Of a DNA stretch of 64,000 nucleotides, positions 19,380-64,000 are shown in pieces (positions within the stretch are counted from its first letter, which is position 1; the number at the start of each line of letters is the position of its first letter). The DNA comes from Candidatus Omnitrophota bacterium. GTDB taxonomy: Bacteria > Omnitrophota > Gorgyraeia > Gygaellales > UBA12090. The stretch is taken from contig JAUSCZ010000042.1 of the NCBI GenBank assembly GCA_030674475.1, positions 11,139-75,138 on the forward strand, given 5' to 3'. Under the pieces are notes generated by a model. It was given only the letters and a program-made list of their open reading frames with translations. It was not told the origin of the DNA and ran no database searches. The position numbers and the translations under genes were made by a program.

Positions 19380-19380
19380 T

Positions 19381-19692: not shown

Positions 19693-19725
19693 TTACGCAA
19701 AAGAGATAAGGATGAGAGTTGACCT

Positions 19726-19792: not shown

Positions 19793-20135
19793 TTCCCTGC
19801 TTTAATTAACTCTCAAACCCAACAAGCAATTGCACAAGAACAGGCTAATCAAGCAACCTTAAATAGAATACACGATATTTATCAAAGAAGCGCTGAAAGA
19901 CAACAGCAAAATATACAAACCTTTCAACAGAATATTGCTGATTGGAACGCTAACTGGTAAAAGAGCCATAATCAAGTAGGAACAAGATGGAATCCTATGC
20001 ACGTTACTGTCAATGATAAGAAAGAATGATAAGTTTAAAGGTGGAAAAGCAGATGTTTCTTATAAAATATGCATATGAATAAAAATAAACGGTTGTCATG
20101 CCTGTTTTTAAATTTTAGACGAAAGAGGCAAGGAT

Positions 20136-20450: not shown

Positions 20451-20546
20451 AATGAATAAGAAGCAATTAATAGTCGTTTGGGTTGTGGGTGGAGTTATGG
20501 CAAGGAGGCGGAAATGAGAAAAGTATTTGCTTTATTCAGAGAAAAA

Positions 20547-20575
20547 GGGGTCAGGCCTTGAAAGTTGAATTTATC
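20547..20575 (+). repeat. Diverged duplicate of the fadJ 5' end / RBS region
   Basis: ggggtcaggccttgaaagttgaatttatc matches ggggtcaggccttgaaacttgaatttatc at 21879-21907. Confidence 0.75.
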
Positions 20576-20651
20576 TTAACAATTCTGTTGTTTAGGATAC
20601 AATACAGTTATGGTCTGTCCTATAGATTGCATAAGAAGGGTGCTTTTATCA

Positions 20652-20720
20652 TATAACTAGTCGTGGTGATAATCGTAACTGAGGGGTTAATTTCAAGTTT
20701 CAAGGCCTGACCCCTAAAAG
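20652..20720. repeat. Copy 2 of the ~67 bp hairpin repeat
   Basis: Near-identical to 19726-19792. Confidence 0.8.
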
Positions 20721-20986
20721 CGTTTGCCGCAGGCGGATGCGCCTACGGCGCAAGAAAGTAGTTGGTAGTTAAAGTTTTTCGCTGTAATCAAAAAAAGCGC
20801 GAGGGCATAAATGAAAAAGAGGATGTCTCTGCAAGATAAGGCCTATGCGGCATTAAAAAAAGCGGTGCGGCAGGTTGTTCAACAGCATAAAAAAAACAGG
20901 TCGTCCTCTCGCGGTGTGGGAAAATGGCAGGGTAGTCCGCATTTCTCCTTACACGGTTAAATAATAGGGACAGCGGCCATTTTAAG

Positions 20987-21045
20987 AAGATGAAGCGCCG
21001 GAATCTGCACTTAGGCCTGGCCTCGCTGTGCGTAGGCGGCGGACG
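20987..21045 (+). pseudogene. Remnant of a thiolase 3' end, diverged from the resident thiolase
   Basis: It translates to KKMKRRNLHLGLASLCVGGGRN, versus KEMQRRNQHLGLASLCVGGGQG at the true thiolase C-terminus (19044-19098). The two differ at several nucleotides, so this is not an exact tandem copy. Confidence 0.6.
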
Positions 21046-21101
21046 GAACTTGACAAAACAATTATTTTGTGATACACTTTGTAATACAGGAGGCGATAAC
21101 A

Positions 21102-21389
21102 ATGTCCATTACTAAATCACACAACACAAAAGAGAAAATTATTACTGCTAGATGCGATACCCATGTTAAAGAAATTCTGTATCTTCTTAGTCAGTCAGAG
21201 CGCCTTTCTATGTCTGATGTTATAGCTAAAAGCATTCTCGAATATCATAAAAGACACTTTCCTGATCAGTCTTTTTCTGAAGAAGAGCAAGAACTATTTG
21301 GCAGACATAGCAGCTCCAAAGGTGATTTATCTATAAACAGGAAACGGTACTTAAAGGAGATGTTGAGTGGAAAACATGGCCGTAATTGA
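21102..21389 (+). CDS. vapB: Ribbon-helix-helix (CopG-like) antitoxin, VapB-type
   Basis: The ATG at 21102 is preceded by AGGAGG. ARCDTHVKEILYLLSQSERLSMSDVIAKSI is an RHH motif. It overlaps the PIN toxin gene by 23 nt. The six-frame ORF starts earlier, at 21069. Confidence 0.6.
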   Translation: MSITKSHNTKEKIITARCDTHVKEILYLLSQSERLSMSDVIAKSILEYHKRHFPDQSFSEEEQELFGRHSSSKGDLSINRKRYLKEMLSGKHGRN

Positions 21390-21798
21390 TGCCGGGCCTT
21401 TAATTGCCTTATTTGATAAATCCGATACGTATCACCAGAAGGTCAAGCATAGGCTTGAGGAATATCGTAAAGATGTCCAGGGAAGACTTATTACCACTTG
21501 GCCTATAATAACAGAAGTTACTTACATTTTGGAAGCACACGTTCATCTCGAAGCCCAGTTAGACTTCTTAAAATGGATTATTCTGGGTGGATTAGAAATG
21601 TTTGATCTAACCAGGGAGCATCTATCCAGGATAATCGAATTACAAAAGAAATATTCTAACCTTCCTATGGACTTTGCCGATGCTACTTTGCTTATTGGAG
21701 CTGAGGCCTTAGATACAACTAAAGTCTTTTCTCTTGATAAAGACTTCTCAATTTATCGCATGCTGGGCAAAAGACACATGGAGAATTTAATGAAATGA
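21367..21798 (+). CDS. vapC: PIN-domain toxin, VapC family
   Basis: AVIDAGPLIALFD, DFADATLL and FSLDKDF carry the conserved acidic residues of a PIN nuclease. Confidence 0.85.
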   Translation: MENMAVIDAGPLIALFDKSDTYHQKVKHRLEEYRKDVQGRLITTWPIITEVTYILEAHVHLEAQLDFLKWIILGGLEMFDLTREHLSRIIELQKKYSNLPMDFADATLLIGAEALDTTKVFSLDKDFSIYRMLGKRHMENLMK

Positions 21799-21890
21799 GA
21801 AAAAGATTTATAAATTGGTCATCAGTCATCCCTATCTACCCTGCCTACCGGCAGGCAGGCTGTTAAGGTTAATAAGAAAGGGGTCAGGCC

Positions 21891-49360: not shown

Positions 49361-49747
49361 ATGGAAAAGAAAAGAATCTTAGTGCTTGACGATGAAGTAA
49401 ACATCACCAGCATGATTAAGACTCGCTTGGAATATACCGGTGAATATGAGGTAAGGACTTTATCTGATGCCAAGAATATAGTCTCAGAGGTGCGTACTTT
49501 TAAGCCGGATTGTATACTTTTGGATTTGCTTATGCCGGAAATAGGGGGGATAGAGGTTTGTCAGATGCTTAATAACGACCCCCTGGGAATAACTATTCCC
49601 ATAATTGTGATTTCAGCCCTGGATAAGAATGTGGATAAGATTAAGGCTTACAAATTAGGGGTGGTTGATTACCTGACCAAACCTTTTGAGGCTAAGGCCC
49701 TGCTCTATGCTGTTGAGAAAGCGGTAAAATCCCGCCAGCCCAAATGA
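49361..49747 (+). CDS. Single-domain response regulator (receiver only)
   Basis: ILVLDDE, phospho-acceptor in ILLDLLMP, and KPF near the C-terminus. Confidence 0.85.
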   Translation: MEKKRILVLDDEVNITSMIKTRLEYTGEYEVRTLSDAKNIVSEVRTFKPDCILLDLLMPEIGGIEVCQMLNNDPLGITIPIIVISALDKNVDKIKAYKLGVVDYLTKPFEAKALLYAVEKAVKSRQPK

Positions 49748-49761: not shown

Positions 49762-50124
49762 TTAAGCGTTGTTATTTCCTTCCTTAATTAAAGAATTAAT
49801 ATAGCGGACTATTTGTCTGCGGTTGTGTAAACCTACCCTGATAAATTTTATTCCGGTTTCAAAATAATTCTTTCCATTTTTTCCTTTTACGGCAGTTGGG
49901 CTTTGCCAGACTACTTTGGCTAAACCATAAAAGGGCGCTTCCTGCGAGGGAAGGGAGATGTTCAATTCCACCAGCGTTTCCGGTTTTACCTTTTCTTTTA
50001 TAGGTAGGCGGATTCCTCCTCCGCTGACATCCATAGCGCGGATTTCGCCTTCCTCGTTTGAGCCCATTATCTTATAAGCAACACTAATCTCGCCTTTAAT
50101 CCTGGGAAAACTTCTCTTTTCCAT
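49762..50124 (-). CDS. PilZ-domain c-di-GMP-binding protein
   Basis: RSFPR (RxxxR) and DVSGGG (DxSxxG) motifs. Confidence 0.75.
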   Translation of the reverse strand: MEKRSFPRIKGEISVAYKIMGSNEEGEIRAMDVSGGGIRLPIKEKVKPETLVELNISLPSQEAPFYGLAKVVWQSPTAVKGKNGKNYFETGIKFIRVGLHNRRQIVRYINSLIKEGNNNA

Positions 50125-51409: not shown

Positions 51410-51868
51410 ATGGAGAGAGTGGATATCGCGGTTAACCGCAAGGCCTTCAGGGATTACGAAATCTTAGAGCGCCTGGAGGCCGGGATAGTCCTGACCGGAG
51501 GTGAGGTAAAATCCCTCAGGGCCGCCAAGGCTGATCTTTCGGATAGTTTCGCCCGTATTGAAGAAAATGAGATTTCGTTGTATAATATGAACATAGCCAA
51601 TTATGCCCAGGCCAGCTATATGAATCTTGAGCCCAAGCGGATTCGCCGGCTTTTACTGCATCGTCCACAAATTCAAAGGCTTAAGGATAAAATCAGCCAG
51701 CGCGGCCTGACCCTTATTCCGCTGAAGGCCTATTTTAATGAGCGTGGGATAGCCAAGCTGGAGATAGCCTTGGCCAAGGGAAAAAAGTTCTATGACCACC
51801 GTGAGGATATCAAGCGCCGGGAATCCGATAGGTATCTGCGCCGGGCTTTAAAAAGCAGAGGCAAATGA
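51410..51868 (+). CDS. smpB: SsrA-binding protein SmpB
   Basis: NRKAFRDYEILE...GIVLTGGEVKS...LLLH conserved SmpB blocks. Confidence 0.9.
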   Translation: MERVDIAVNRKAFRDYEILERLEAGIVLTGGEVKSLRAAKADLSDSFARIEENEISLYNMNIANYAQASYMNLEPKRIRRLLLHRPQIQRLKDKISQRGLTLIPLKAYFNERGIAKLEIALAKGKKFYDHREDIKRRESDRYLRRALKSRGK

Positions 51869-52023: not shown

Positions 52024-52457
52024 GGGGGTGAAAGGTTTCGACTTAGACGAGTTGGGTATCAGTGGCATGCCGCGGACGCAGGGAAGGCCGCGATAACAAA
52101 CCTTGCAAAAGTCAAACGCTAAAAACGAGAATGATCGTTTATTAAAAACAGTTGAGGGTTATGTTGCTCCATTTTTTGTTGCAACACCCCGCCCTGTTTT
52201 TACAGCGCCAGTCTTCGCTCACTAATCTGAGCGAAGCCCCTTACCGTTTAGCCTAAGAAACGGCGTAGGGCAAATTAGATAGGCTGGTTTCCTGCCCTGC
52301 CCTGGGACAGGGAATGAGAGCTATAAAAGGGATGACCCTTAGGGAATCACGGTTATCGGAGGCCCTGAGGATGACGGTTAAAAAGGTAACCTACGCATTG
52401 TAGAGGCTGGTATTTGACTGTTTGAGGACGCGAGTTCGATTCTCGCCACCTCCACCA
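52024..52457 (+). ncRNA. ssrA: tmRNA (SsrA)
   Basis: Lies directly downstream of smpB. The 5' end gggggtgaaaggtttcgac pairs with the 3' end ...ggacgcgagttcgattctcgccacctccacca. This is a tRNA-Ala-like acceptor with a G3:U pair and encoded CCA, plus a ggcatgccg pseudoknot region. Palindromic hairpins follow at 52458-52530. Confidence 0.8.
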
Positions 52458-52664: not shown

Positions 52665-54734
52665 ATGCCAAAAACTGATAATCTGAAAAAGATAGACATT
52701 CCGCCGGTGGCCAAATTTTTTCTGGTTATGCTTTTGGCTATATTCGCGACCGAGGCGGCAATTATGTCGGGTCTTTATTTTTTTCTAAGCTATCTGCGTC
52801 TTCCGCCGCTGTGGGAAGGATTTCTTGACAGCCTCACCTTGGCTGTTTTATTAACTCCGGTATTGTATTTCTTATTCTATCGCCCCTTATCTTTGCAAAT
52901 CGCCCGATATAAACAGGCTTTAGAGACAATCCAGGGATTAAAAACCGGATACGGCGTCATCGTCCGCACGGCAATGGATGGTTTCTGGCTTATCGATATC
53001 CAGGGGCGCATTTTGGAGGTTAACGATTCTTACTGCCGTTTAATCGGTTACAGCCGCGAAGAATTATTAACCATGTCAGTATTTGATTTAAGAGCTAATG
53101 AAAAACCCGAAGATACCAAAAGACATCTCCAGCGGATAATAGCATCCGGCAGTGATCGCTTTGAAAGTCATCATCGTGGTAAAGACGGCAGAATTGTGGA
53201 TCTGGAGGTCAGCGTTAATTATTTAGATGCTGAGGGCGGCCGGCTCTTTGCCTTTCTGCACGATATTACCGAGCGCAAAAAGAGGCAAAGAGAATTAGAA
53301 GAAGCAAACGTGTTTAATAGTTCCTTGGTCCAGACCATCCCTTTTGGAATGGATATTGTGGATAAGGAGGGAAATATTTTGTGGTTAAATCCCAGGCTGG
53401 AATCCGTCTTTGGCAAGGAAGCTATCGGCAAGAAATGCTGGGAACTTTACCGGGACGATAAACTGCCATGCGATAATTGCCCTTTGATAGGCGATATTGC
53501 TTTAGGTGAAACCGCGACTATTGAGATTTCCGGAGTACTCGGAGGGAGGAGTTTTCAGATTTCTCATATCGGGATGGTTTATCAGGGCAAAATGGCAATT
53601 TTGGAGATATTCCAGGATATTACTGAGCGTAAACAGAATCAGGCGATGTTAGAAAAGCTGGCCGTGGCAGTCAGGCAGACCGCGGATATGGTTGTTATTA
53701 CCGATAAGGACGGGAAGATTGAATACGTGAATCCGGCCTTTGAATTAGAGACCGGTTATAAAGCCGAAGAAGCTATTGGTCAGACCCCGCGCATACTCAA
53801 GTCCGGCCAACATGACCAGGGTTTCTATGAGCGGCTTTGGCAAACGATTCTCGCCGATGAAGTTTTTCGCGACATCTTAGTTAATAAAAAAAAGGACGGC
53901 CAGTTATATTACTCCGAGAAAACCATTACCCCGATAAAAGACGAACACGGAGTTATTACCAATTTCGTTTCCAATGATAAAGATATTACCACGCGAAAAC
54001 TCGCGGAAGAGGAGCTTCTAAAGCTGAATCGGGAACTGATTAAACTTGACCAGTTAAAGTCGGGATTTATCAATATGTCTTCCCACGAATTGCGCACGCC
54101 GATAGCGATTATCCGCGAAGGCATCTCCCAGATAGTGGAAGGACTGCACGGAGAGCTTAAGCCGGAACAAAAATATTTCTTAGATAAGTCTTTTAAGAAT
54201 GTTAACCGCCTGATCAAAATTGTAGATAATATCTTTGAGATTTCCGGACTTGATTCAGAAAAGGCCTTTCTGGAAAAAGAGTCCTTTGACATGGTGGAAT
54301 TAGCCCGAAGCGCGATAGCCGGCCTTGACCCGGAGATAAAGGGATCGGGGTTAGAGATAAGAGAAAATTTCCCCCGGAATAAAGTTGAGCTGAACGTTGA
54401 CCGGAAGAAAATAAACCGGGTTTTGACCGAGCTGATAAGAAACGCTCTCAAATTTACCGAGAAAGGTTATATTGAGATTAAAATTGAAGATAGGGAAGAT
54501 AGGGTTGAGTGCGCTGTTAAGGATACCGGAATAGGCATTGCCGAGGAAAATTTACCCGCGGTGTTTGATAAATTCCAGCAATTTGACCGGGATTTTGGGC
54601 CCGGAGAAAGAGGCACCGGATTAGGCTTGGCCATTGCCAAAGGACTTATAGAATTGCATAAAGGTAAAATCTGGGTAGAAAGCAGGATGGGCGAAGGCTC
54701 GAAATTTACCCTTAGTCTGCCGAAAGGAAAATAA
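52665..54734 (+). CDS. Membrane-anchored multi-PAS sensor histidine kinase
   Basis: N-terminal TM helices, three PAS/PAC-like blocks, HisKA H-box SHELRTPIA, and HATPase_c GTGLGLAIAKGLIELHKGKIWVES. Confidence 0.85.
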   Translation: MPKTDNLKKIDIPPVAKFFLVMLLAIFATEAAIMSGLYFFLSYLRLPPLWEGFLDSLTLAVLLTPVLYFLFYRPLSLQIARYKQALETIQGLKTGYGVIVRTAMDGFWLIDIQGRILEVNDSYCRLIGYSREELLTMSVFDLRANEKPEDTKRHLQRIIASGSDRFESHHRGKDGRIVDLEVSVNYLDAEGGRLFAFLHDITERKKRQRELEEANVFNSSLVQTIPFGMDIVDKEGNILWLNPRLESVFGKEAIGKKCWELYRDDKLPCDNCPLIGDIALGETATIEISGVLGGRSFQISHIGMVYQGKMAILEIFQDITERKQNQAMLEKLAVAVRQTADMVVITDKDGKIEYVNPAFELETGYKAEEAIGQTPRILKSGQHDQGFYERLWQTILADEVFRDILVNKKKDGQLYYSEKTITPIKDEHGVITNFVSNDKDITTRKLAEEELLKLNRELIKLDQLKSGFINMSSHELRTPIAIIREGISQIVEGLHGELKPEQKYFLDKSFKNVNRLIKIVDNIFEISGLDSEKAFLEKESFDMVELARSAIAGLDPEIKGSGLEIRENFPRNKVELNVDRKKINRVLTELIRNALKFTEKGYIEIKIEDREDRVECAVKDTGIGIAEENLPAVFDKFQQFDRDFGPGERGTGLGLAIAKGLIELHKGKIWVESRMGEGSKFTLSLPKGK

Positions 54735-54739: not shown

Positions 54740-54835
54740 CCTATCCCCTCCTTGGTAAGGAGGGGATTAGCAAAGGTGAGCCGGGAAGGGTAAGAAATCC
54801 TCCCCTTGGCAAGGGGAGGCGGGGAGGGGTTAAGA
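54740..54835. repeat. Hairpin repeat family cctcccctt-NNN-aaggggagg followed by a G-rich tail (2 copies)
   Basis: atcccctccttggtaaggaggggat and cctccccttggcaaggggaggcggggaggggt. Related copies lie at 55316-55358 and 57431-57508. Confidence 0.8.
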
Positions 54836-54915: not shown

Positions 54916-55365
54916 ATGGATAAGCGCAAAAAAAGAATATTGTTGGTGGATGATGAGCCGGATTTTGTGGAGTTGATAAAAAGCAGATTAGAGGCCAATG
55001 AATACCAGGTGGTAACCGCCAAAAACGGCAAAGAGGCCCTGGATTTGCTTAAATGCCTGACCTGCGATAAGTTTGACGCGATATTGCTGGATATCCTGAT
55101 GCCGGAGATAGATGGGATAGAAACCTTGAAAAGAATACGCCAGCAGGATAAGGAGCTTCCGGTGTTTATGCTGACGGCTTATTCGGACAAAGGGATGTTT
55201 GAGCAGGCCAATAAAGCCGGGGCCTCGGGATATATTGTTAAAACCAGCGACCTTCAGCAGGAAATCAATAATATTAATAATATCCTCAGGCTGGCCCCGA
55301 AGTATCACCCGGCGGAGAAATCCTCCCCTTACCAAGGGGAGGTAGGGAGGGGTAAGGAAAAATAA
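54916..55365 (+). CDS. Response regulator (receiver) with a short repeat-encoded C-terminal tail
   Basis: ATG at 54916 with a GGAGGG RBS. ILLVDDEPD. Phospho-acceptor in ILLDILMPEIDG. The last ~14 codons (SSPYQGEVGRGKEK) are encoded by a copy of the hairpin repeat. The six-frame ORF starts at 54853. Confidence 0.8.
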   Translation: MDKRKKRILLVDDEPDFVELIKSRLEANEYQVVTAKNGKEALDLLKCLTCDKFDAILLDILMPEIDGIETLKRIRQQDKELPVFMLTAYSDKGMFEQANKAGASGYIVKTSDLQQEINNINNILRLAPKYHPAEKSSPYQGEVGRGKEK

Positions 55366-55736
55366 TGGCTAAAAAGCGCTTGTTGTTGGTTGATGATGAA
55401 GTAGAATTGGTGGAGATGATAAAATTTCGTTTAGAGGCATCCGGCTATGAAGTGCTCACCGCTAATGACGGCCAGCAGGCCTTAGAGATTGCCCGCAGGG
55501 AAAAGCCGGACCTGATTATCCTGGATGTAATGCTTCCTAAAATGGATGGATATAAAGTGTGCGGTTTGCTTAAAAAGGATTCCCGGTATGCCCATATCCC
55601 GGTAATGATGTTTACGGCCAAGGCCATGGATGCCGATCTGAAATTAGGCCAGGAAGTTTCTGCCGATGCCTATCTGACCAAGCCCTTTGAGCCCAAAGTG
55701 CTTTTGGAGAAGATAAAAGAATTAGTCAAAGAATGA
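55365..55736 (+). CDS. Single-domain response regulator (PilH/CheY-like)
   Basis: LLLVDDEVE, phospho-acceptor in IILDVMLPKMDG, and LTKPF. Confidence 0.85.
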   Translation: MAKKRLLLVDDEVELVEMIKFRLEASGYEVLTANDGQQALEIARREKPDLIILDVMLPKMDGYKVCGLLKKDSRYAHIPVMMFTAKAMDADLKLGQEVSADAYLTKPFEPKVLLEKIKELVKE

Positions 55737-57430
55737 CCCGACAGAAGAAAACTTTAAGCGAGATGCTGGTAGAGCTTGGACTTTTGAGCCCGGAGCAGGC
55801 CAGAGAGGCTAAGAAGGAAGAAGAGCTGAATAGACAGCCCTTTAGGAAAATAATTGTCCAGAAGGGTTTTATCAGCGAGGAAGACCTGATTTCCTTTATG
55901 GCCAGCAATATGAACCTGCCCCAGATTGAACTGGAGAACTACATAATTGACCCCAAGATAATTGAACTTATCCCGGAGGGCTTGGCCCGAAAGCATCAGA
56001 TTGTTCCCCTTTTTAAAATCGCCAACACCTTGACTTGCGCTATGTTTGACCCCTTGAATATTTTTGCCATTGATGAACTGCGCAATAAAACCGGCTTTGA
56101 TATTGAAGCGGCAGTGGCCACCGAGAAGGAAATCAAAAGGGCCCTGAACGAATATTACAGCGCCAAAGGCGGGGTTGAAGAGATTGTTAAGGCCATTGAT
56201 AAAGAAAGGCTGGGGCTTAAAGAAGGAGAGGAGTTAGAGCTTAAAAAACTCCAGCAGATTTCCGGTGAGCCGCCGATTATCCGGCTGGTTAATCTTACCA
56301 TTATGCAGGCGGTCCACGATGGCTCAAGCGATATCCACATTGAGCCGGAGGAGGAAGTTTTAAAGGTGAGATACCGGATTGACGGCATACTCCATGACCA
56401 GTCTTCTTTACCTAAATACCTGGAATCAGCGGTGGTCTCGCGGATAAAAATACTCTCCAGCCTGAATATTGCCGAGCGCCGCGCCCCCCAGGACGGCCGT
56501 TTCCAGATGAAGGTGGAAAACCGCCAGATAGATATCCGGGTTTCAGTAATGGCCACAGTCTACGGGGAAAATGTGGTGATGCGCCTGCTGGATAGAAGCA
56601 ATACGGTTATGGGTTTACCCGATTTAGGCTTACCTAAAGAGGCCGTTAAAACTTATGAAAAGCTGATTCAGAGTCCGCATGGGATAATCTTAGTAACCGG
56701 GCCTACCGGAAGCGGGAAGACCACTACCCTTTATACTTCGCTGAATGTTATTAATTCTCCGCAAAAGAATATCGTTACTATCGAGGATCCGGTAGAGTAT
56801 CATCTTAACGGAATTCGTCAGATTCAGGTGGAATCCCGGTCCGGGGTGAGTTTTGCCACTGGTTTAAGGTCAATCTTGCGGCAGGATCCGGATGTAATAA
56901 TGGTAGGTGAAATCCGGGATAAGGAGACCGCGGAGATTGCTATTCAGGCGGCCCTTACCGGCCATCTGGTCTTTTCCACCCTGCATACTAATGATGCCTC
57001 CGGGGCAATAACCCGGTTGATGGATATGGGGATTGAGCCGTTTTTGATCACTTCTTCATTGAGCGCGGTTCTGGCGCAACGTTTGGTCAGGGTGGTCTGT
57101 AAGGATTGCAAGGAAGAATATGCTCCCTCCGAAGAGGTATTAAAAGAAATAGGGTTAGAGAGCAATCAGGATTCGCGGGTCAAATTCTACCGGGGAAAAG
57201 GCTGTCTAAAATGTAAGGACACCGGCTACAAGGGCCGGATAGGAATTTATGAGCTTATGGTTATGGATGAGAAACTGCATAATCTGATTGTGGCCAAGGT
57301 TTCCAGCGAGGAAATAAAAAGATATTGCCGGTCTTCCGGCGGCATAAGCTTAAGGCAGGATGGCTTAGAAAAAGTCAAGGCCGGAATAACCACCATTGAA
57401 GAAGTTTTGCGCCTAACTCCAAAGGAATAG
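55733..57430 (+). CDS. pilB: PilB/GspE-family type IV pilus assembly ATPase, copy 3
   Basis: N-terminal MshEN-like motifs (TLSEMLVELGLLSPEQAREAKKEE, FRKIIVQKGFISEEDLISFMASNM). Walker A GPTGSGKTTTLYTS. LTGHLVFSTLHT. CKDC...CLKC. Confidence 0.9.
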   Translation: MTRQKKTLSEMLVELGLLSPEQAREAKKEEELNRQPFRKIIVQKGFISEEDLISFMASNMNLPQIELENYIIDPKIIELIPEGLARKHQIVPLFKIANTLTCAMFDPLNIFAIDELRNKTGFDIEAAVATEKEIKRALNEYYSAKGGVEEIVKAIDKERLGLKEGEELELKKLQQISGEPPIIRLVNLTIMQAVHDGSSDIHIEPEEEVLKVRYRIDGILHDQSSLPKYLESAVVSRIKILSSLNIAERRAPQDGRFQMKVENRQIDIRVSVMATVYGENVVMRLLDRSNTVMGLPDLGLPKEAVKTYEKLIQSPHGIILVTGPTGSGKTTTLYTSLNVINSPQKNIVTIEDPVEYHLNGIRQIQVESRSGVSFATGLRSILRQDPDVIMVGEIRDKETAEIAIQAALTGHLVFSTLHTNDASGAITRLMDMGIEPFLITSSLSAVLAQRLVRVVCKDCKEEYAPSEEVLKEIGLESNQDSRVKFYRGKGCLKCKDTGYKGRIGIYELMVMDEKLHNLIVAKVSSEEIKRYCRSSGGISLRQDGLEKVKAGITTIEEVLRLTPKE

Positions 57431-57508
57431 GTAATCCTCCCCTTACCAAGGGGAGGCGGGGTGGGGTAAGAAATCCTCCCCTTACCAAGGGGAGGCGGGG
57501 TGGGGTTA
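57431..57508. repeat. Two tandem copies of the cctccccttaccaaggggaggcggggtggggt hairpin repeat
   Basis: Two ~38 bp copies with near-identity, with the downstream pilC RBS AGGAGG immediately after the second copy. Confidence 0.85.
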
Positions 57509-57523
57509 AGAAGGAGGTTTTGT

Positions 57524-58738
57524 TTGCCCGATTATCTGTATAAGGCCAGAGACGAAAGCGGTAAATTAGTTAAGGGCGCTCTCGATGCGGACTCTGCCGA
57601 TGAGGTGAGCGCCAAATTGCGCAAGATGGGGTATATGGCTGTTTCCCTAAGCCTGGCTAAAAAAGAAATTGACCTGGAGGGTATGTTGCGGCAATTGCGC
57701 CGGATAAATCCTCAGGATTTGATAGTTTTTAATTTTCAGCTGGCTAATCTGCTGGAATCCGGAATTTCCCTTTTAATCGCCCTGCGCACCATTGAGGCCC
57801 AGACGGCAAATAAAAGGCTGAAAGATGTCTTAGGTGAGCTTTGGAGGGCGGTTGAATCCGGGAGCTCTTTCTCGGAAAGTCTCAGCCGCCATCCCAAGGT
57901 GTTCAGTAAATTATTCGTGAATATGGTCAAGGCCGGTGAGGAATCCGGAAAGCTCGATGCGGTGCTCAAGAAATACGCCTCATTCTCCGAGGCCAAAGAG
58001 GAATTATCCCAGAAGATTAAGGGAGCGCTTTTTTATCCGCTTATTCTATTTATCGCCTCTATCTTGGTTATAGTATTTATCGTAACCTTTATTATGCCGA
58101 AGTTTGCCGATTTATTCTTAAGTGCTGGGCTAAAACTGCCTTTGGTTACCCAGATTCTATTTTCATTTGGGGTAATTATTAAGAGATACTGGTATCTGAT
58201 TATCTTAGGCTTCTGTATATTGTCTTGGCTGATAGTCCAATACGCGCGAACTAAAACCGGAAAATTTCAATTTGACCGCTTAGTGCTTAAAATCCCGGCA
58301 GTAGGAGATTTGGCGCGTAAAATCTATGTCTCCAGGTTTAGCCGCACTTTGGCGGTTCTTTTGTCCAGCGGAGTATCGGTTTTGCGCTCCTTAGATATAA
58401 CTAAGGAGGTGATCGGTAATGAGGTGATGGCCGGGGTAATGGCAAACTTAAAGGCTTCAGTTGAGCAGGGAGAGCGGCTCTCCGAACCTTTAAGAGTAAG
58501 CGGAGAATTTCCCTTAGACGCGGTGCAGATGATTTCCGCGGGAGAAGAATCCGGTAATTTAGACGGGATGCTGGATAAGATAGCCGATTTTTATGATACC
58601 GCGGTCGGTTATTCACTTAAGAAACTGACCGCGTTGATTGAGCCTTTATTGCTGGCCATAATGGGCGCGGTAGTGGCTGTGATTATGGCTTCGGTATTGA
58701 TCCCGATTTTTGATATGGTTAAGATTATAAGACATTAA
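57524..58738 (+). CDS. pilC: PilC/GspF platform protein, copy 2
   Basis: TTG start 8 nt after an AGGAGG RBS. PDYLYKARDESGKLVKGALDADSADEVSAKLRKMGY is the classic PilC N-terminus. The six-frame ORF extends to 57500, inside the repeat. Confidence 0.8.
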   Translation: MPDYLYKARDESGKLVKGALDADSADEVSAKLRKMGYMAVSLSLAKKEIDLEGMLRQLRRINPQDLIVFNFQLANLLESGISLLIALRTIEAQTANKRLKDVLGELWRAVESGSSFSESLSRHPKVFSKLFVNMVKAGEESGKLDAVLKKYASFSEAKEELSQKIKGALFYPLILFIASILVIVFIVTFIMPKFADLFLSAGLKLPLVTQILFSFGVIIKRYWYLIILGFCILSWLIVQYARTKTGKFQFDRLVLKIPAVGDLARKIYVSRFSRTLAVLLSSGVSVLRSLDITKEVIGNEVMAGVMANLKASVEQGERLSEPLRVSGEFPLDAVQMISAGEESGNLDGMLDKIADFYDTAVGYSLKKLTALIEPLLLAIMGAVVAVIMASVLIPIFDMVKIIRH

Positions 58739-58775
58739 ATATAGTTGATAGTTTATAGCTATAGGAGGAGGAAGA

Positions 58776-59225
58776 ATGAAAAAAGGTTTTACCTTGATTG
58801 AGCTTTTGATAGTCATCGCGGTAATTTCAATTTTGATCGGAATTTCCCTGCCCCGTTTTAAGGGTATGCAGGATGAGGGAAATATCGCCAAGGCTAAAGG
58901 CGAGTTGCGGACACTGCAAACCGCGATAGAGAGTTATTTTATCCACAATAATAACACTTACCCGGCTACCACTGCCGCCGCTCTGCAGACTGCCTTAGCC
59001 GCGGCCGTCCCCAGCATTATAACTTTTGTGCCTACCGACCCCTTTAGCGCCACCAGCGCTGATTATGTATATGTGATGGGCGGGACTAACAGCAAATTTT
59101 ATATTATTTATTCGGTTGGCCCGGGTGGAAACGGAAGCGCGGTTATTACCAGCGACGCCGTGGTTGAAACCAACGGATCAAGCTGTATTTATGCCTCTAA
59201 CATCAGCCAGGATTTACAGCCATAA
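58776..59225 (+). CDS. pilA: Type IV pilin (major pilin candidate) with a class III prepilin signal
   Basis: MKKGFTLIELLIVIAVISILIGI: G-1/F+1 cleavage site and E+5. 149 aa. A terminator-like repeat hairpin follows. Confidence 0.85.
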   Translation: MKKGFTLIELLIVIAVISILIGISLPRFKGMQDEGNIAKAKGELRTLQTAIESYFIHNNNTYPATTAAALQTALAAAVPSIITFVPTDPFSATSADYVYVMGGTNSKFYIIYSVGPGGNGSAVITSDAVVETNGSSCIYASNISQDLQP

Positions 59226-59316
59226 TTAGCAGCTGTCAGCTGTCAGCTTTCAGCTTTTTACTGATAGCTGAAGGCTTAAAAAAGGAAGTTGTAATGAGGT
59301 CAAGAAGGCAAAAATT

Positions 59317-59703
59317 TTGATGTTATCAAACGTTACACATCAAACAGCGAGAGTTCGGGATGGCTTTAGTCTATTAGAGATCATGATAGCCTTGCTTATT
59401 TTTACCGTGGGGGTTATCGCGATAATCTGGGCCTTCAGCGCGGGTATGTCCGCTACTGGCGATATTGAAAATGTTGATTTAGCCTTAAACATTGCCCAGG
59501 CGAAAATGGAGGAAATAAAAAATACTCCCTTCGCCAGCCTCACCGATAGCGGCCCCGTGGCGGATTCTAACTTTTCCAATTTTAATACAGCGGTTAATGT
59601 AGGTGAAGGCCAAAACCCTATGCTGGTAGACGTAACCGTAGCTTGGAATGTTAAGGGAGGCTCAACCAATATTACCTTGACCACGCTGGTAGCGAATTAT
59701 TAA
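59317..59703 (+). CDS. Minor pilin / pseudopilin (PilV- or GspI-like)
   Basis: GFSLLEIMIALLIFTVGV prepilin N-terminus after a 15-16 aa leader. 128 aa. Confidence 0.6.
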   Translation: MMLSNVTHQTARVRDGFSLLEIMIALLIFTVGVIAIIWAFSAGMSATGDIENVDLALNIAQAKMEEIKNTPFASLTDSGPVADSNFSNFNTAVNVGEGQNPMLVDVTVAWNVKGGSTNITLTTLVANY

Positions 59704-59745
59704 AGGCTATCAGCAGTTGAAGGCCGAGGGAAGGAAAGTAGAGAG

Positions 59746-60264
59746 TTGAAAAAAGTGCGTAAAGGATTCACGCTCATAGAACTTATTATTACGATTTTAA
59801 TGCTGGTGGTTTTAGTGGGGGTGAGCGCCTTTGTTTTTCGCGCGGTGCTTTTAAGCTGGTCCAGCCAAGAAACCAGGTCAGGCATTGATATAGTTTTAGA
59901 TCGGGGGATTGAGGAGATGGTCCGGGATTTAAGAAAGGCCAGACAGGTTCAGTCTATAAATAATGACGAGCTAAGATTTACCCAGGACCAAAGCGCCTAT
60001 TATATTTATTATTTTTATAATGCCAATGACTCCTATCCTCCAAGTTTTAACCAAAGTTCGTATCAGTTAAGAAAAGCCGCCCTTTCCGGAGGCATAAGTG
60101 GAACCTTCACCTATGGCTCAGGCCCAATTATAATTACTGAAGCATTGCCTCCGGCGATCTCAGATTTATCAATAAGCGCTAATTTAATTACTCTGGATTT
60201 GAGTATAAAAAGAGGCGATGAGACCATAAGGTCAAGGACGCAAGTTAGGCCGAGAAACCTATGA
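59746..60264 (+). CDS. Minor pilin with a prepilin-type N-terminal methylation domain (PilW/GspJ-like)
   Basis: MKKVRKGFTLIELIITILMLVVL. Confidence 0.65.
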   Translation: MKKVRKGFTLIELIITILMLVVLVGVSAFVFRAVLLSWSSQETRSGIDIVLDRGIEEMVRDLRKARQVQSINNDELRFTQDQSAYYIYYFYNANDSYPPSFNQSSYQLRKAALSGGISGTFTYGSGPIIITEALPPAISDLSISANLITLDLSIKRGDETIRSRTQVRPRNL

Positions 60265-61349
60265 TCAAGCTATCCGCTATCCCCTCTCGCTCGTCCGCGA
60301 AGAAAGGAACAGCATTATTACTTACCTTCATAATAATGACCACCTTAACTACGGTGGTGATGGCATTCTTATATATGAGTTCCCTGCGGCTGAAAGGTTC
60401 AGGATACGATATGTCCGATAGTCAGGCCCTCTGGCTGGCTGAGGCGGGATTACAAAAGGCTTTATATACCTTAAAAAATGACACTAATTATCAAAGCAGT
60501 CCCACTACTATTACCGGTTCTCTGGGCAACGGCGCGTATTCCGTAAGCGCCGTTAAAAGCGGAAGTATTTATACTTTTACCTCTCTGGGCACGGTTAACG
60601 CGATGAGCCGGCAGATCAGGGCCAGCGCGGCCTTTACCTCTTCGGTTTTAGTGCGCAGTATTCATGCTGACGGCAGCACGGTTGATTTTAACGGCTCAAC
60701 CGGAGTAATAAATGGTAATATAAGTTGTCATGTGCATATAACAAATTACGCGGGTATGACTATCAACGGAACTCTTTCCGAAAATTTTCCCATGATTAAT
60801 CCCACCTTAGATTTTGATTACTATAAGAATCTGGCTGCTGCTTCCGGCCAGCTTATCACCGGCAGTTATACCTTTCAAAACGGCACCTACAGCGGAGTAT
60901 GGTATGTGACTACAGGGGTTACTATAGGAAATAATGCCATAATAAATGGCTCTATCTTTTCGGATAGCAGTATTCAATTTGTCGATAAGGCGGATAATGT
61001 TCAGATAACCCCCAGTCTGCTTACTAATTATCCGGCGCTGGCCGCCAAGAATAATATGAGCACCAGTGGCACCGGTGCCCCCGGCCAAAGGATTGGCTTA
61101 CAGAATAGCACCATAAATGGATTGATTCTGGCGCAAAATAATATCACCTTTGACGATGTGAAAAATTCTACTATTAACGGCACAATATTGGCGGGAGGTA
61201 ATTTTTCGATGGGCAATGGAAGCGGCATTACCATTAATTATAATGATAATATTTTCGCGCCTATGCCGCCGGCCTTTACCTATTCTCCCGGAGCCGACCT
61301 GGTAGTGGTATTTCAAAAAGACTGGAATGAGATAGTCCCCGCTACTTAA
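60261..61349 (+). CDS. PilX-like minor pilin / pilus tip-associated protein
   Basis: The N-terminal hydrophobic segment KKGTALLLTFIIMTTLTTVVMAFL resembles the PilX_N pattern. Ser/Thr/Asn-rich beta-rich remainder. Position within the minor-pilin block. Confidence 0.5.
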   Translation: MIKLSAIPSRSSAKKGTALLLTFIIMTTLTTVVMAFLYMSSLRLKGSGYDMSDSQALWLAEAGLQKALYTLKNDTNYQSSPTTITGSLGNGAYSVSAVKSGSIYTFTSLGTVNAMSRQIRASAAFTSSVLVRSIHADGSTVDFNGSTGVINGNISCHVHITNYAGMTINGTLSENFPMINPTLDFDYYKNLAAASGQLITGSYTFQNGTYSGVWYVTTGVTIGNNAIINGSIFSDSSIQFVDKADNVQITPSLLTNYPALAAKNNMSTSGTGAPGQRIGLQNSTINGLILAQNNITFDDVKNSTINGTILAGGNFSMGNGSGITINYNDNIFAPMPPAFTYSPGADLVVVFQKDWNEIVPAT

Positions 61350-61363
61350 ACGACCTAACCAAG

Positions 61364-62941
61364 ATGAATATAGAAAGCCTGATACCAAACGGATTTTTTT
61401 CTAAGGAAAAATATAGTATCGGCTTGGATATCGGCGCCAGTTCTATAAAATTAGCCCAGTTTAAGCAAGAAGAAGGCGTTTTCTCTTTAATTAAAGTCAA
61501 AAGTATTGACATAGAAAAGAATAAAGAGCCGGCGCGTATCCTTAAAGAACTGTTTTCGGGCCCAGAGGCGAAAAACTCCAAAGTAGTTGCTTTGCTGGAT
61601 TCGCCTTATTCCATGCTTAAAAGGGCGATTGTGCCGATGATGCCGGATAATGAACTAAAAGAGGCGGTATCTTTGGAAGCTAAGAATTATTTCCCTTTTC
61701 CTATCGAGGATTCGCTGGTTGATTTTGAAGTCATCGGGGATCTTGTTGAGAATGGGGTTAAGAAAAAAGAAATACTGGTGGGGGTGTGTCCTCATAAAGC
61801 CATAGCGGAACGTGTGCGTCTGTTTAATGAGCTGAACCTAAAACCGCGGGTAATTATCAACTCGGCTTTAGCAATGTTCAATCTGCTTAAGTTTAAAAAA
61901 TTTAAAGAAAACTTAAGTGTCGCGGCAATAGATATAGGAAAGAGCTTATCTAATTTGATAATCATTCGGGCTCACAAACTTTATTTTAACCGCGAGATTC
62001 CCATATCCGGCGATGACTTTACCCGGGCCTTGACCAGCGCTCTCTCTACGGCTTCAGGCAAAATAGAGCTTTCTTATTTAGAGGCGGAAAGGATAAAAAA
62101 GGAATACGGAATCCCCCGGGAAATCAATTCCGAGCTGGTTGAGAATAAGATTTCTCACGCCCAGCTTCATTCTTTATTGATGGCCTCTTTAGAGAAGCTG
62201 GCCACGGAAATCGGCCGCTCCTTTGATTTTTACCGTGAAGAAACCGGAGGGATTAAAGTAGACAGGCTGATACTTTTTGGCGGAAGCGCGATGTTGAAGG
62301 GTTTGGATAAATTCCTGGCTAAGGAGTTAGCCATAGAGGTTGAGGTCTATAATTCCTGGGAAGGAATCAAGGCAAGTAAAGAATTAAACGATCATCCTGA
62401 AATCAGCCGTATGGCTATGGCTGTAGGCGCGGGAATAAATAAAGCCGAGGGAATAAATTTTCTTCCCTTTGAGATAAGGGAGGATCTGAAGCGCCTTATG
62501 GAGAGGGCGGCTTTAAAGGCCGGGTTAAGCGCGGCGATAACTATTTTGGTTCTTACTTTTGTGGGACTGCGCCTAAGCGTGGCTAATTTAGACAAAAAAA
62601 TAAACGCGGTGAAATCAGAGTTGTCTTTTTTAAATACCCGTTTTGGCGAGGCCAAAGAGCGGAATTTAATAAATGATGTTTTGTCGGTTGAGCCTTACTG
62701 GGAAGATGTTTTTAAGGAAATCGGCAATGGTATCCCGGATGAAATATACCTCACCCAGATGAGCGCGCAAGGCGGCAGTGTAACCCTCAAGGGAGTGATT
62801 GCCTCAGGCAGAGACCAGCAGGATGCCTTTTCCGGTTTTATCCGTAAGCTGGAAGCGGGCATATTCAGGAATATTAAGTTTTCCGCGGCGGCGCGGGCCG
62901 CGGGCCAAAAAGAATTTGAAGTTCAAATGCAGTTTGAGTAA
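61364..62941 (+). CDS. pilMN: PilM-PilN fusion protein
   Basis: N-terminal actin-like PilM (IGLDIGASSIKLAQF). The C-terminal ~150 aa carry a TM helix (LSAAITILVLTFVGL) followed by a PilN-type coiled-coil/periplasmic domain. Confidence 0.8.
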   Translation: MNIESLIPNGFFSKEKYSIGLDIGASSIKLAQFKQEEGVFSLIKVKSIDIEKNKEPARILKELFSGPEAKNSKVVALLDSPYSMLKRAIVPMMPDNELKEAVSLEAKNYFPFPIEDSLVDFEVIGDLVENGVKKKEILVGVCPHKAIAERVRLFNELNLKPRVIINSALAMFNLLKFKKFKENLSVAAIDIGKSLSNLIIIRAHKLYFNREIPISGDDFTRALTSALSTASGKIELSYLEAERIKKEYGIPREINSELVENKISHAQLHSLLMASLEKLATEIGRSFDFYREETGGIKVDRLILFGGSAMLKGLDKFLAKELAIEVEVYNSWEGIKASKELNDHPEISRMAMAVGAGINKAEGINFLPFEIREDLKRLMERAALKAGLSAAITILVLTFVGLRLSVANLDKKINAVKSELSFLNTRFGEAKERNLINDVLSVEPYWEDVFKEIGNGIPDEIYLTQMSAQGGSVTLKGVIASGRDQQDAFSGFIRKLEAGIFRNIKFSAAARAAGQKEFEVQMQFE

Positions 62942-62944
62942 CTA

Positions 62945-63454
62945 ATGACAGAGCTGATAAAAATATTTCGGGAGAGGAAAAAGATAATTTTTGTTCTGCC
63001 TGGAATCCTCTTTTTATTTATTTTCTCTTTTTATTTTTCTTTAGCCGCAAAGATAAGCAGAAAGGCGAAAGAGCTGGATGGGTTAAAAATTCAGCTTAAA
63101 TCGGTCAATGAGAATCTGCGGATAATTAAGGAGCTGAAAGTAAATAAAAGGCTGATTAAGGAAGAGGATGCTTCTTTAGTTGTTGATACTATAACCAAAC
63201 AGTGCCAGTCTCACTCTTTGGAGTTAAAATCCATAACCCGCAAAGAAAAGAATATAAAAGACGGCTATTCGCTTTTGCCGGTGTATCTGGAGGTGGAGGG
63301 TGAGTTTAAACAGATAGGTTTATTTTTAAGTTTTCTAAGGGAATTTGAGGGCGCGCTTATTACGGTAGATAACTTTCAAATAAGGAGCACTGATATGCCC
63401 TTGCCCAAAATAGCCGGTTTGGTTACCCTTACCATTTATCTTAGCAATGAATAA
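62945..63454 (+). CDS. pilO: PilO-like pilus assembly protein
   Basis: N-terminal TM, coiled coil (LDGLKIQLKSVNENLRIIKEL), and a C-terminal PilO-type domain. Confidence 0.7.
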   Translation: MTELIKIFRERKKIIFVLPGILFLFIFSFYFSLAAKISRKAKELDGLKIQLKSVNENLRIIKELKVNKRLIKEEDASLVVDTITKQCQSHSLELKSITRKEKNIKDGYSLLPVYLEVEGEFKQIGLFLSFLREFEGALITVDNFQIRSTDMPLPKIAGLVTLTIYLSNE

Positions 63455-63863
63455 ATCAATGCCGAAATTTGATCAGAAAAAAGCCATATTAGCGGTTTTG
63501 GCGCTGATAGCGGTTTTTGTCTGGTATAACGGCTTGAAGTCTTTTTCTAAGAAGAAAGACAGCGCGCCTTCCGGAGATATTGAAGCCTCTTCTTCGGGAC
63601 AAAAGATAAAGCAAAAAAAACGCGCCGGTTATAAAGATTGGGGCAGGGATCCCTTTGTGATTACCCAGGCGCCCGCTGTTAATTCTTCCGCGTTAGCGCT
63701 GGGCGGGATTGTCTACGATGAGAAAGACAGCTACGCCCTCATTAATAACCAGCTTCTGCATATCGGAGACGAGGTGAACGGAAACAGAGTGGTTGACATA
63801 CAACAGGATAGGGTTATTTTAAATGACGGAAATAAAGACATCGAGCTGAGGCTTGAGCAATGA
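63447..63863 (+). CDS. pilP: PilP-like pilus assembly protein
   Basis: N-terminal anchor, an RDPF motif, and a C-terminal beta-domain pattern GIVYDEKDSYALINNQLLHIGDEVNGNRVVDIQQDRVIL. Confidence 0.6.
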   Translation: MNKSMPKFDQKKAILAVLALIAVFVWYNGLKSFSKKKDSAPSGDIEASSSGQKIKQKKRAGYKDWGRDPFVITQAPAVNSSALALGGIVYDEKDSYALINNQLLHIGDEVNGNRVVDIQQDRVILNDGNKDIELRLEQ

Positions 63864-64000
63864 TGATTTCATTCAGGAAAAATAATCTTTTTCAGCTTTC
63901 TGCTTTCAGCTTTCTGCTTTCAGCTATGTTAATTGGCTGTGCCACCACCGGCCGTATTCAAAAAACAGGGCTTCCGGTAGAAAGCTTTTCCGTCAATAAT
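63860..64000 (+). CDS. Start of a lipoprotein, probably the PilQ secretin N-terminus (partial; continues beyond the window)
   Basis: MMISFRKNNLFQLSAFSFLLSAMLIGCATTG has a lipobox LIGC. There is no stop before the window end. The PilQ assignment rests on position alone, after pilMNOP. Confidence 0.4.
   Translation, partial: MMISFRKNNLFQLSAFSFLLSAMLIGCATTGRIQKTGLPVESFSVNN

Follow-up and report, generated by a model that had tools for sequence, protein, structure and literature searches.

A conserved type IV filament operon with a single-chain PilM-PilN protein in Candidatus Omnitrophota

The stretch of DNA analysed here (hereafter the window) comprises 64,000 nucleotides of contig JAUSCZ010000042.1 from a Candidatus Omnitrophota bacterium (GenBank assembly GCA_030674475.1), and towards its 3′ end it carries a set of pilus genes in which PilM and PilN form one protein. 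Gene calls, which combine an open reading frame (ORF) listing with Pfam and NCBIfam scans of the window ORFs, place this set on the + strand, where the genes are co-directional and close-packed with many overlapping start and stop codons. From 5′ to 3′ the order is a PAS histidine kinase, two stand-alone receivers, an ATPase, the platform protein PilC, a GspG-like major pilin, three minor pilins, the PilM-PilN fusion, PilO, and a small protein in the position of PilP. A preliminary description of the stretch had proposed a compact cluster running from two receivers through PilB, PilC, PilA, three minor pilins and a fused PilM-PilN to PilO; domain content and order bear out a compact type IV filament cluster, and the ORF listing together with the Pfam and NCBIfam assignments reproduces the gene order.

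The single-chain PilM-PilN protein

The fusion protein (61364–62941, +; 525 residues) is encoded by one ORF, in which Pfam recognizes PilM_2 at residues 20–352 (E 1.6e-35) and PilN at residues 449–523 (E 2e-5), and it exceeds the cut-off of the NCBIfam pilM model (144.8 against 133). An actin-like PilM domain (residues ~15–357) is followed by a 6-residue linker, the PilN motif, a transmembrane/coiled-coil helix (residues 369–442), and a ferredoxin-like PilN domain (residues 446–524). In alignments the junction reads ...A-V-G-A-G / I-N-K-A-E-G / I364-N-F-L-P368, the last segment being the PilN motif of the window protein (DNA positions 62453–62467). Where PilM and PilN are unfused, the corresponding INLLP sequence is the N-terminal PilN peptide that binds PilM. 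Across the alignment of the fusion family, N365, L366, L367, and P368 are near-invariant, and the actin-fold phosphate and adenosine motifs (D22, G24, K29, G192, and G306) are likewise kept as invariant or near-invariant positions.

Errors can merge adjacent pilM and pilN genes, and the single chain could in principle be an assembly or sequencing artefact produced by a lost stop or a frameshift between the two. A case of this kind was encountered in the unrelated locus L051 (Acidobacteriota), where a 564-residue ORF considered as a fusion looks like frameshift read-through, with a linker that appears to be out of frame ahead of PilN's own Met. For the window protein, a separate Logan assembly of run SRR13727527 contains DNA that is 100% identical over 4335 base pairs (bp; 59006–63340), junction included, and the protein is a single ORF in 104 homolog clusters derived from many samples and assemblers. 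The linker is short, conserved, and without a relic start codon, and the junction is modelled at high confidence. The artefact reading is effectively refuted by these observations, and the fusion named in the preliminary description is real and free of a frameshift.

The best homolog (P0001), an NCBI entry on an 88-kb contig of a Candidatus Omnitrophota metagenome-assembled genome, is named PilM and is 100% identical to the fusion. Of the top 120 homolog clusters, 104 reach a length of 480 residues or more, 98 of these 104 carry an INLLP-like motif past residue 300, and the first 87 of the 120 all measure 501–562 residues. A single ORF of ~520–560 residues with INLLP at the junction is retained in about 100 homolog clusters, at identities down to 35%. 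An exhaustive search with the PilN half alone (residues 360–525) found 149 relatives among 1.84 billion representatives, and the 145 that were retrieved consist of 84 full-length fusions, 25 fragments with a PilM tail ahead of the motif, 32 fragments without the motif, and 4 weak, apparently stand-alone PilN proteins. The fusion had been called uncommon, which holds among model organisms only; it is the rule in its own family and occurs as well in the distant cluster L089, together with a secretin, PilB, and PilC, and in Akkermansia-type Amuc_1102/1101/1100 clusters (L090). Fusion of M and N is a recurrent feature, found in at least two lineages of the PVC (Planctomycetota-Verrucomicrobiota-Chlamydiota) type, and is not in itself linked to the loss of a secretin.

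The genome scan for fusions used a 15-sequence alignment, and the tblastn "fusions" that it raised outside the Omnitrophota (L006, L012, L014, L015, L018, L028, L046, and L076) were rejected as ordinary unfused PilM of 350–415 residues. The Akkermansia-type locus L090 (9380–16824) encodes Amuc_1102, a fused PilM-like protein of 560 residues that belongs to the Amuc_1101 family, Amuc_1100, a 358-residue protein, and a 1006-residue secretin with TPR repeats, an arrangement which suggests that Amuc_1100 fills a PilO-like slot of a type IV filament machine.

An AlphaFold2 model of the fusion, built on a 34-sequence alignment, has a mean predicted local distance difference test (pLDDT) score of 85 and consists of a PilM-like domain, a single long helix (residues 369–442), and a ferredoxin-like C-terminal domain, with a pLDDT of about 86–90 at the junction. 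When the model was compared with the PDB using Foldseek, the top matches were P. aeruginosa PilM:PilN1-12 (5EOU), Myxococcus PilM (3JC8; template modelling (TM) score 0.80 on target), and Thermus PilM-PilN (2YCH; TM-score 0.82). TM-scores on target span 0.76–0.82 for these three PilM structures, FtsA and MreB follow the PilM entries, and GspL is absent from the top 50 matches. A sequence search of the PDB with the fusion returned PilM entries alone, and the GspL families (cytoplasmic domain and GspL_C) gave no match to the fusion in Pfam or NCBIfam. Sequence and predicted fold both place the fusion with PilM and not with GspL. The Omnitrophota protein thus joins the architecture of GspL to the sequence, fold, and motifs of PilM/PilN.

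Conservation and 3′ boundary of the module

The module recurs in nine other loci (L002, L003, L004, L005, L072, L082/83, L084, L086, and L088), with fusions that are 29–82% identical to that of the window, and those loci that have a source title come from Omnitrophota. In L002, where the fusion is 82% identical, synteny extends from smpB through the entire cluster. All nine modules end after the small protein that follows PilO.

Downstream of the fusion, PilO (62945–63454, +) is recognized by Pfam above the cut-off (E 1e-10). The next gene (63447–63863, +) encodes a small transmembrane-anchored periplasmic protein of 138 residues in the PilP/GspC position. Its earlier assignment as PilP agrees with the position and with an HR-like C-terminal domain, but not with the transmembrane anchor in place of a lipoprotein signal, the lack of a lipobox Cys, or the lack of a match to Pfam PilP (PF04351). 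Matches to T2SSC, T2SSB, and GspC models (GspC_delta) are weak and under their cut-offs (T2SSC 24 against 27), and a look-up by exact sequence gave no record of the protein. The protein is 27–30% identical, with a common C-terminal motif, to small proteins encoded directly upstream of secretins in L085 (Omnitrophota; 1–14114), a locus of two tandem operons in which PilM, PilN, PilO, the small protein, and a secretin of 496–526 residues are encoded without fusion. This homology suggests that the fused module keeps an apparent secretin-facing HR-type domain. The short Omnitrophota PilQ secretins form a large and unusually well-conserved family, with 2081 matches at E ≤ 1e-10, the top 120 of which are about 60–78% identical to the L085 query.

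The last ORF of the window (63860–64000, +; MMISFRK...LIGCATTGRIQKTGLPVESFSVNN) had been taken for a probable PilQ start. It corresponds to the N-terminus of a 371-residue lipoprotein in the syntenic locus L002 (the match ending ...GCATTGRIQKTGLPVESFSVNN) that carries Amidase_3 (E 5e-62) and Cu_amine_oxidN1, and the window start contains a lipoprotein signal with LIGC. By homology to this ortholog, the ORF is a lipoprotein N-acetylmuramoyl-L-alanine amidase and not PilQ, which amounts to an annotation-level correction. An orthologous amidase follows the module in L082/L083 as well, and none follows it in L003, L084, L086, or L088. As the association is confined to the sub-clade of the window, the amidase is probably a housekeeping neighbor and not a component; a role as a machine part was considered and judged unlikely, given its absence after those four modules and the murI gene that comes next downstream. 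The ATG of the amidase overlaps the stop of the preceding gene (ATGA) in the window and also in L002 (12500–13615), an arrangement that may put it on one transcript with the pilus genes within this sub-clade.

Beyond the module in L002 the operon closes without a secretin, and the genes downstream of the amidase are murI, queD/C/E/F, fumarase, RNase PH, and Ham1; the 9.5 kb following the cluster there is made up of housekeeping genes. Neither the window nor any of the nine related loci yielded a secretin, and the expectation of a PilQ in the cluster fails. Among window ORFs of at least 110 residues, the Pfam and NCBIfam scans contained no PilT, prepilin peptidase, or secretin, and no match to Peptidase_A24 or DiS_P_DiS that would indicate PilD. 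Six-frame tblastn searches of the window with two Omnitrophota secretin probes found neither PilQ nor GspD, and a PilT probe matched only the cores of three PilB-like genes. The flanks of the nine related loci (up to 10 kb) likewise contain no secretin, PilT, or PilD. The gene immediately upstream of the window, read from ~500 bp of extra sequence, encodes a radical-SAM enzyme. The remark that no PilT or PilD is in view therefore stands, both within the window and for the sequence that could be seen around it. An outer membrane is indicated by LptF and LptG, both encoded in the window, and the class III signal peptides of the pilins imply that a PilD-type peptidase must exist elsewhere. The module would thus depend on other parts of the genome for a secretin and, of necessity, for a prepilin peptidase.

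Motor, pilins and regulators

The cluster ATPase (55733–57430, +) is an extension-type hexameric ATPase of the PilB/GspE class with MshEN and T2SSE domains (T2SSE E 5e-142), and it carries the Walker A/B, Asp box, His box, and tetracysteine motifs. Against the PDB it scores 530 bits with PilB, 449 with GspE, and about 115–129 with PilT, and its best solved relatives are the PilB proteins of Geobacter and Myxococcus. The contrast between T4aP (type IVa pilus) and T2SS (type II secretion system) ATPases was drawn from NCBIfam scores across orthologs and controls, and not from a reference phylogeny, using the equivalog models for PilB (TIGR02538, cut-off 675.65) and GspE (TIGR02533, cut-off 630.25). 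On this scale the cluster ATPase passes as GspE (647.4) and falls short as PilB (650.7). The same holds for six orthologs from other fused clusters (L002, L004, L082, L084, L086, and L088), which pass the GspE model at 634–647 and fail the PilB model at 637–661, while the L005 ATPase, a partial match only, is under both cut-offs. A control from L006, a genuine T4aP PilB adjoining PilT-PilC, behaves in the opposite manner (PilB 697, passing; GspE 628.8, failing).

Three PilB paralogs had been noted in the window, and three are found (2562–4283, 4283–5971, and 55733–57430). All three have MshEN and tetracysteine motifs, match solved PilB structures at 530–545 bits and PilT at 106–131 bits, and are 42–45% identical to each other. 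They are old paralogs of the extension type, and none is a disguised PilT. The suggestion that they have diverged into different roles needs revision, although the copies do differ: the upstream two lean towards PilB (646 against 572 for GspE in the first, 627 against 577 in the second) and keep an MshE-type motif for binding cyclic di-GMP (41.5 and 40.2, cut-off 38), whereas the cluster copy leans towards GspE and has lost it (31.6, a degenerate motif). All remain extension-type, and none is PilT-like. A 453-residue T2SSE-only ATPase near the L088 cluster was considered as a PilT and set aside as Tad/FlaI-type.

The upstream two paralogs belong to a second type IV filament set (592–8258) that comprises a HAMP-GAF-GGDEF protein, a 148-residue MshEN-only protein with a near-canonical cyclic di-GMP motif, the two tandem PilB-like ATPases, a REC-HD_5 protein (presumably of the HD-GYP type), and a PilC that scores 414 with the PilC-Thermus model and 390 with GspF. 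The second tandem ATPase occupies the slot of PilT in pilB-pilT-pilC operons, and no pilins or PilMNOPQ were found near this set.

The polytopic platform protein of the cluster (PilC/GspF; 57500–58738, +; T2SSF in two stretches, E 9.6e-61) scores best with GspF (375.5, below the cut-off of 424), followed by PilC-Thermus (352). Four pilin-like proteins with class III signal peptides follow. A short type IVa prepilin leader with Gly-1, Phe+1, and Glu+5 (MKKG/FTLIEL) is present, and three of the four have N_methyl matches. The major pilin (58776–59225, +; 149 residues; MKKG/FTLIEL; N_methyl and T2SSG) has a GspG-like globular part with a single Cys and no disulfide loop, and its top NCBIfam model is GspG (57.7, below 88.85); its PDB matches are mainly to the shared N-terminal helix. 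Minor pilin 1 (59317–59703, +; N_methyl) is GspI/PilV-like, with sub-threshold scores for both GspI (35.6, cut-off 44.35) and PilV (34.8), and its translation probably begins with the ATG at 59320; the L002 ortholog has 127 residues. Minor pilin 2 (59746–60264, +; MKKVRKG/FTLIEL; N_methyl and IV_pilin_GFxxxE) is kept in L002–L005 and L082. The third is a large modular minor pilin of 362 residues in the PilX/GspK position (60261–61349, +), which lacks Glu5, matches the GspK N-terminus weakly (22.4 against 130), and has homologs that carry PilX_N (PF14341). PDB sequence searches with the major pilin, the 138-residue protein, and the 362-residue pilin were not discriminating. At 8466–9326 of L088, a 286-residue pilin-like protein (weak N_methyl) carries the Hint/intein-like domains PT-HINT and Hom_end_hint.

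These scores bear on the possibility that the module is a T2SS-like secretion machine, in which a short periplasmic pseudopilus of the GspG-like pilin, with I/J/K-like caps, expels folded exoproteins by way of a secretin whose gene lies elsewhere. In such a machine the fusion would serve as GspL, PilO as GspM, and the small transmembrane protein as GspC, and a retraction ATPase would be unneeded. The M-N architecture is that of PulL/GspL, which is described as the equivalent of a PilM+PilN fusion in a T2SS that is itself a T4aP derivative without PilT (PMC10191384). The ATPases of the window and of six related clusters side with GspE where the PilB control does the reverse, GspF, GspG, GspI, and GspK are the top NCBIfam models for PilC and the pilins, the HR-like protein is membrane-anchored with weak T2SSC/GspC matches, and neither the window nor the nine related loci contain PilT. 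Giant-protein loci of Omnitrophota, too, reportedly have T2SS/T4P genes and secreted hydrolases on their flanks. The GspE margin is small (4–17 bits), though, and the PilB control lies just 1.5 bits under the GspE cut-off. No protein of the module reaches the threshold of a GspL, GspM, GspC, or GspD family. Both sequence and fold identify the cytoplasmic domain as PilM, its nucleotide motifs are kept, and the top 50 structural matches include no GspL. The operon lacks a secretin, even though gspD normally clusters with gsp genes, and the variable beta-helix/discoidin lectin module of the largest pilin is easier to reconcile with an exposed tip than with a periplasmic piston. Taken together, a secretion machine is a tentative and somewhat unlikely explanation.

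The 362-residue pilin itself is predicted by AlphaFold2 (pLDDT 89) to combine a pilin part, made up of a long alpha1 helix and a 4-stranded sheet, with a C-terminal module that folds as a right-handed beta-helix. Distant relatives have only the N-terminal 25–30% in common with it and carry discoidin (F5_F8_type_C) domains instead. The top Foldseek match is Thermus ComZ (6QVI, E 4.6e-6), with ice-binding-type beta-helices next, and the TM-scores with ComZ are low (0.25–0.32). It is a candidate tip-pilin and probably a ligand-binding adhesin. A swappable binding-type module on a pilin in the K/X position points to an exposed filament tip and gives a mild preference to a surface pilus rather than a periplasmic pseudopilus.

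ComZ, as the best solved match of this pilin, also raises the possibility of a DNA-uptake (competence) pilus whose beta-solenoid minor pilin is a tip receptor for DNA, as has been proposed for ComZ in Thermus. The K-position pilin of L084 has weak HHH_3 and faint T2SSK matches, and the major pilin resembles small pilins of the ComGC/PilA4 type. The match to ComZ, on the other hand, is one of pilin-plus-solenoid architecture and not of close homology, relatives have lectin domains where this pilin has its C-terminal module, a retraction motor is not in view, and ComEA, ComEC, and DprA were not seen among the window ORFs. A role in DNA uptake is very improbable.

Upstream of the ATPase, a membrane-anchored histidine kinase (52665–54734, +; three PAS domains, HisKA, and HATPase_c by Pfam) is the presumed sensor of the module, and it precedes two stand-alone CheY-like receivers, receiver 1 (54916–55365, +; Response_reg E 1.8e-29) and receiver 2 (55365–55736, +; Response_reg E 5.9e-28). 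Both receivers are about 123–150 residues long, consist of a REC domain only, and retain on inspection of the sequence the full set of phospho-acceptor residues; receiver 1 has DD as its acidic pocket, carries its phospho-acceptor Asp within LLDILMP, and keeps the conserved Thr and Lys. Receiver 1 has an alternative start at 54853, and its L002 ortholog favors 54916. Receiver 2 overlaps its neighbors at both ends, with its start in the stop of receiver 1 and its stop in the start of the ATPase. In L002, L004, L005, L082, L084, and L086 an ortholog of receiver 2 (45–93% identity) immediately precedes the ATPase, and a PAS histidine kinase is upstream of the receivers in L002, L072, L082/83, L084, and L086, its position being taken in L088 by a dCache-type kinase. 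The kinase and the two receiver-only regulators noted earlier thus belong to a module part that is conserved across related loci. A Pil-Chp-like or PilS/PilR-like membership, which had been suggested for them, does not hold: the window ORFs include no CheA, CheW, or methyl-accepting chemotaxis protein, only a classical HisKA kinase and two receivers, and the window contains no NtrC-type PilR with AAA+ and helix-turn-helix output domains.

A palindromic repeat recurs in this part of the operon. Its core is CCTCCCCTT-NNN-AAGGGGAGG, followed by CGGGGWGGGGTTAAGAA, in a unit of ~40 bp, and a pattern search found four copies, without assigned strand, between 54799 and 57495 (54799–54819, 55322–55342, 57436–57456, and 57475–57495) where none would be expected, all of them in or between the 5′ genes of the operon; a variant lies near 54746–54766. 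The copy within the 3′ end of receiver 1 is an insertion that encodes an extra C-terminal tail (SPYQGEVGRG), and the L002 ortholog (138 residues) is tailless. None of 86 related loci contains the repeat. This strain-specific element may be related to repetitive extragenic palindromes or miniature inverted-repeat transposable elements (REP/MITE-like), or may form an intra-operon RNA hairpin.

Several other features were recorded around these genes. A stand-alone receiver (49361–49747, +) and a PilZ-domain protein (49762–50124, −) lie a few kb upstream of the cluster, and in L088 two PilZ genes and three receivers are directly upstream of the cluster ATPase. L082, a WOR_2 relative, has a 23S_rRNA_IVP-family gene between the ATPase and PilC (5903–6274) and a faint Y1_Tnp-like gene (375–935) amid duplicated kinase and receiver genes upstream. 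In the window, a transfer-messenger RNA gene (tmRNA; 52024–52457) adjoins smpB (51410–51868); the tag reported by ARAGORN (EGYVAPFFVATPRPVFTAPVFAH) is unusual in being without a ...LAA-type end, and the resume codon may be mis-called. Farther upstream, 19127–21367 is without an ORF of at least 110 residues, and 20001–22000 has the lowest guanine-plus-cytosine content of the window (0.38); this stretch sits just upstream of a PIN-domain gene (21367–21798).

Interpretation and comparison with known systems

The explanation favored here, with a probability of roughly 55%, is that of a conserved, self-contained type IV filament operon of Omnitrophota that has T4aP ancestry and T2SS-like traits and most likely builds an adhesive surface pilus for attachment to a host or surface. 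Under this explanation, the four pilin-like proteins would be cut by a PilD-type peptidase encoded elsewhere, and, by homology, the PilB/GspE-class ATPase and the PilC platform would polymerize the GspG-like major pilin, with assembly primed by the three minor pilins. The largest of these, a PilX-type protein with a swappable C-terminal module, would be at the filament tip as a ligand-binding adhesin. By analogy with GspL in the T2SS, the fusion would fix the contact of PilM and PilN at 1:1; PilO would pair with the PilN part, and the membrane-anchored HR-like protein, given its L085 homologs, would face a secretin not encoded in the operon. The conserved synteny of the PAS kinase and the two CheY-like receivers, which have no DNA-binding output, suggests that they control the machine post-translationally. 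T4aP clusters are found by TXSScan in nearly all Omnitrophota, are expressed by V. archaeovorus (Seymour et al. 2023, PMC10066038), and have been interpreted as attachment organelles of epibionts or predators (PMC10066038), and a surface attachment pilus fits the epibiotic or predatory lifestyle proposed for the phylum.

Several observations weigh against this explanation. Secretin, PilT, and PilD were not found within the reachable sequence of this genome, and a surface-exposed, dynamic pilus is accordingly presumed rather than observed. The ATPase is over the GspE cut-off and under that of PilB, as are six of its seven orthologs (L005 being under both), PilC and the pilins score highest against GspF/G/I/K, and the protein in the PilP position is GspC-like in topology; together with the lack of PilT, these traits fit a secretion pseudopilus equally well. 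The docking of the INFLP peptide in the PilM groove is deduced from pLDDT and the fold match, and it is likewise a proposal that the beta-helix pilin sits at the tip and works as an adhesin.

To our knowledge, the Omnitrophota have no cultured representatives. In T4aP machines the coupling of PilM and PilN is thought to govern which motor (PilB or PilT) or platform partner is engaged, and GspL is the permanently fused version in secretion systems. A family that has all of the PilM/PilN hallmarks in a fused form, GspE-leaning motors, and no PilT or secretin in cis provides a natural test of the role of fusion and of the evolution of the T2SS from pili. It is conceivable, if quite improbable, that the Omnitrophota module is a surviving intermediate of the transition from T4aP to T2SS, or a convergent repeat of it that arose independently, with a fused PilM-type protein whose nucleotide site and INLLP tether are intact, a GspE-class ATPase, GspG/I/K-like pilins, no dedicated PilT, and a borrowed secretin. 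Should this be the case, the module would show how GspL arose, and the hard-wiring of PilM to PilN would accompany the loss of exchange between extension and retraction motors. For the favored attachment pilus, a tip module that can be swapped between beta-helix and lectin, together with a kinase and two receivers of its own, points to regulated attachment to a host or surface.

The Omnitrophota T4aP clusters identified with TXSScan (PMC10066038) are from the same phylum and are probably the same loci. The text and supplements of that study that were searched do not mention an M-N fusion or the status of the secretin and PilT, and contain no gene-by-gene data on pilT, pilQ, pilD, or pilM. Relative to the papers searched, the fused, secretin-less, and PilT-less architecture is new, while the protein is already annotated as PilM in databases. 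Calls of "T4aP present" in Omnitrophota may blend two architectures.

Among characterized systems, the T4aP alignment subcomplex (Thermus 2YCH, Pseudomonas 5EOU/5EOX, and Myxococcus 3JC8) shares with the module the PilM fold and nucleotide motifs, the INLLP peptide, the ferredoxin-like PilN domain, and PilO. The alignment proteins PilM, PilN, and PilO are all present by Pfam (PilM_2, PilN, and PilO), the pilM cut-off, and fold, with M and N fused. In 5EOU a PilM chain joined to PilN residues 1–12 was engineered for crystallization, whereas the module has a natural M-N chain with a 6-residue linker; it differs further in an operon without PilQ, PilT, or a lipoprotein PilP and in an ATPase under the PilB cut-off. 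With the T2SS the module has in common the order of a cytoplasmic actin-like domain, transmembrane segment, and periplasmic ferredoxin-like domain seen in GspL/PulL, an ATPase over the GspE cut-off, GspG/I/K-like pilins, a membrane-anchored HR-domain protein, and the lack of PilT. In contrast to the T2SS, the fusion keeps the PilM nucleotide site and the INLLP tether, the cluster contains no secretin, and the K-position pilin has a beta-helix where GspK has an alpha-domain.

The Amuc_1101 family (NF045709; Akkermansia-type Amuc_1098–1102) resembles the fusion in its PVC-type lineage, in a PilM-like domain followed by a transmembrane segment and a periplasmic extension (about 560–608 residues), and in a location beside pilin-like genes, but only the PilM part of the fusion matches this family (110.8 bits against a cut-off of 650, profile positions 4–363 of 608), and the Akkermansia-type cluster has Amuc_1100 at the position of PilO and includes a 1006-residue secretin. 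Thermus thermophilus ComZ, also encoded among minor pilin genes, has the same succession of a pilin N-terminal module and a large beta-solenoid as the 362-residue pilin, which differs in its low TM-score, its length (ComZ has about 500 residues), and the lack of evidence for DNA binding. The original label of type IVa thus applies to the M, N, and O domains, which are of the PilM, PilN, and PilO type, and is too confident for the ATPase, for PilC and the pilins, and for the GspL-like M-N architecture. The module is of T4aP lineage with T2SS-like traits, and lies on the border between the two systems.

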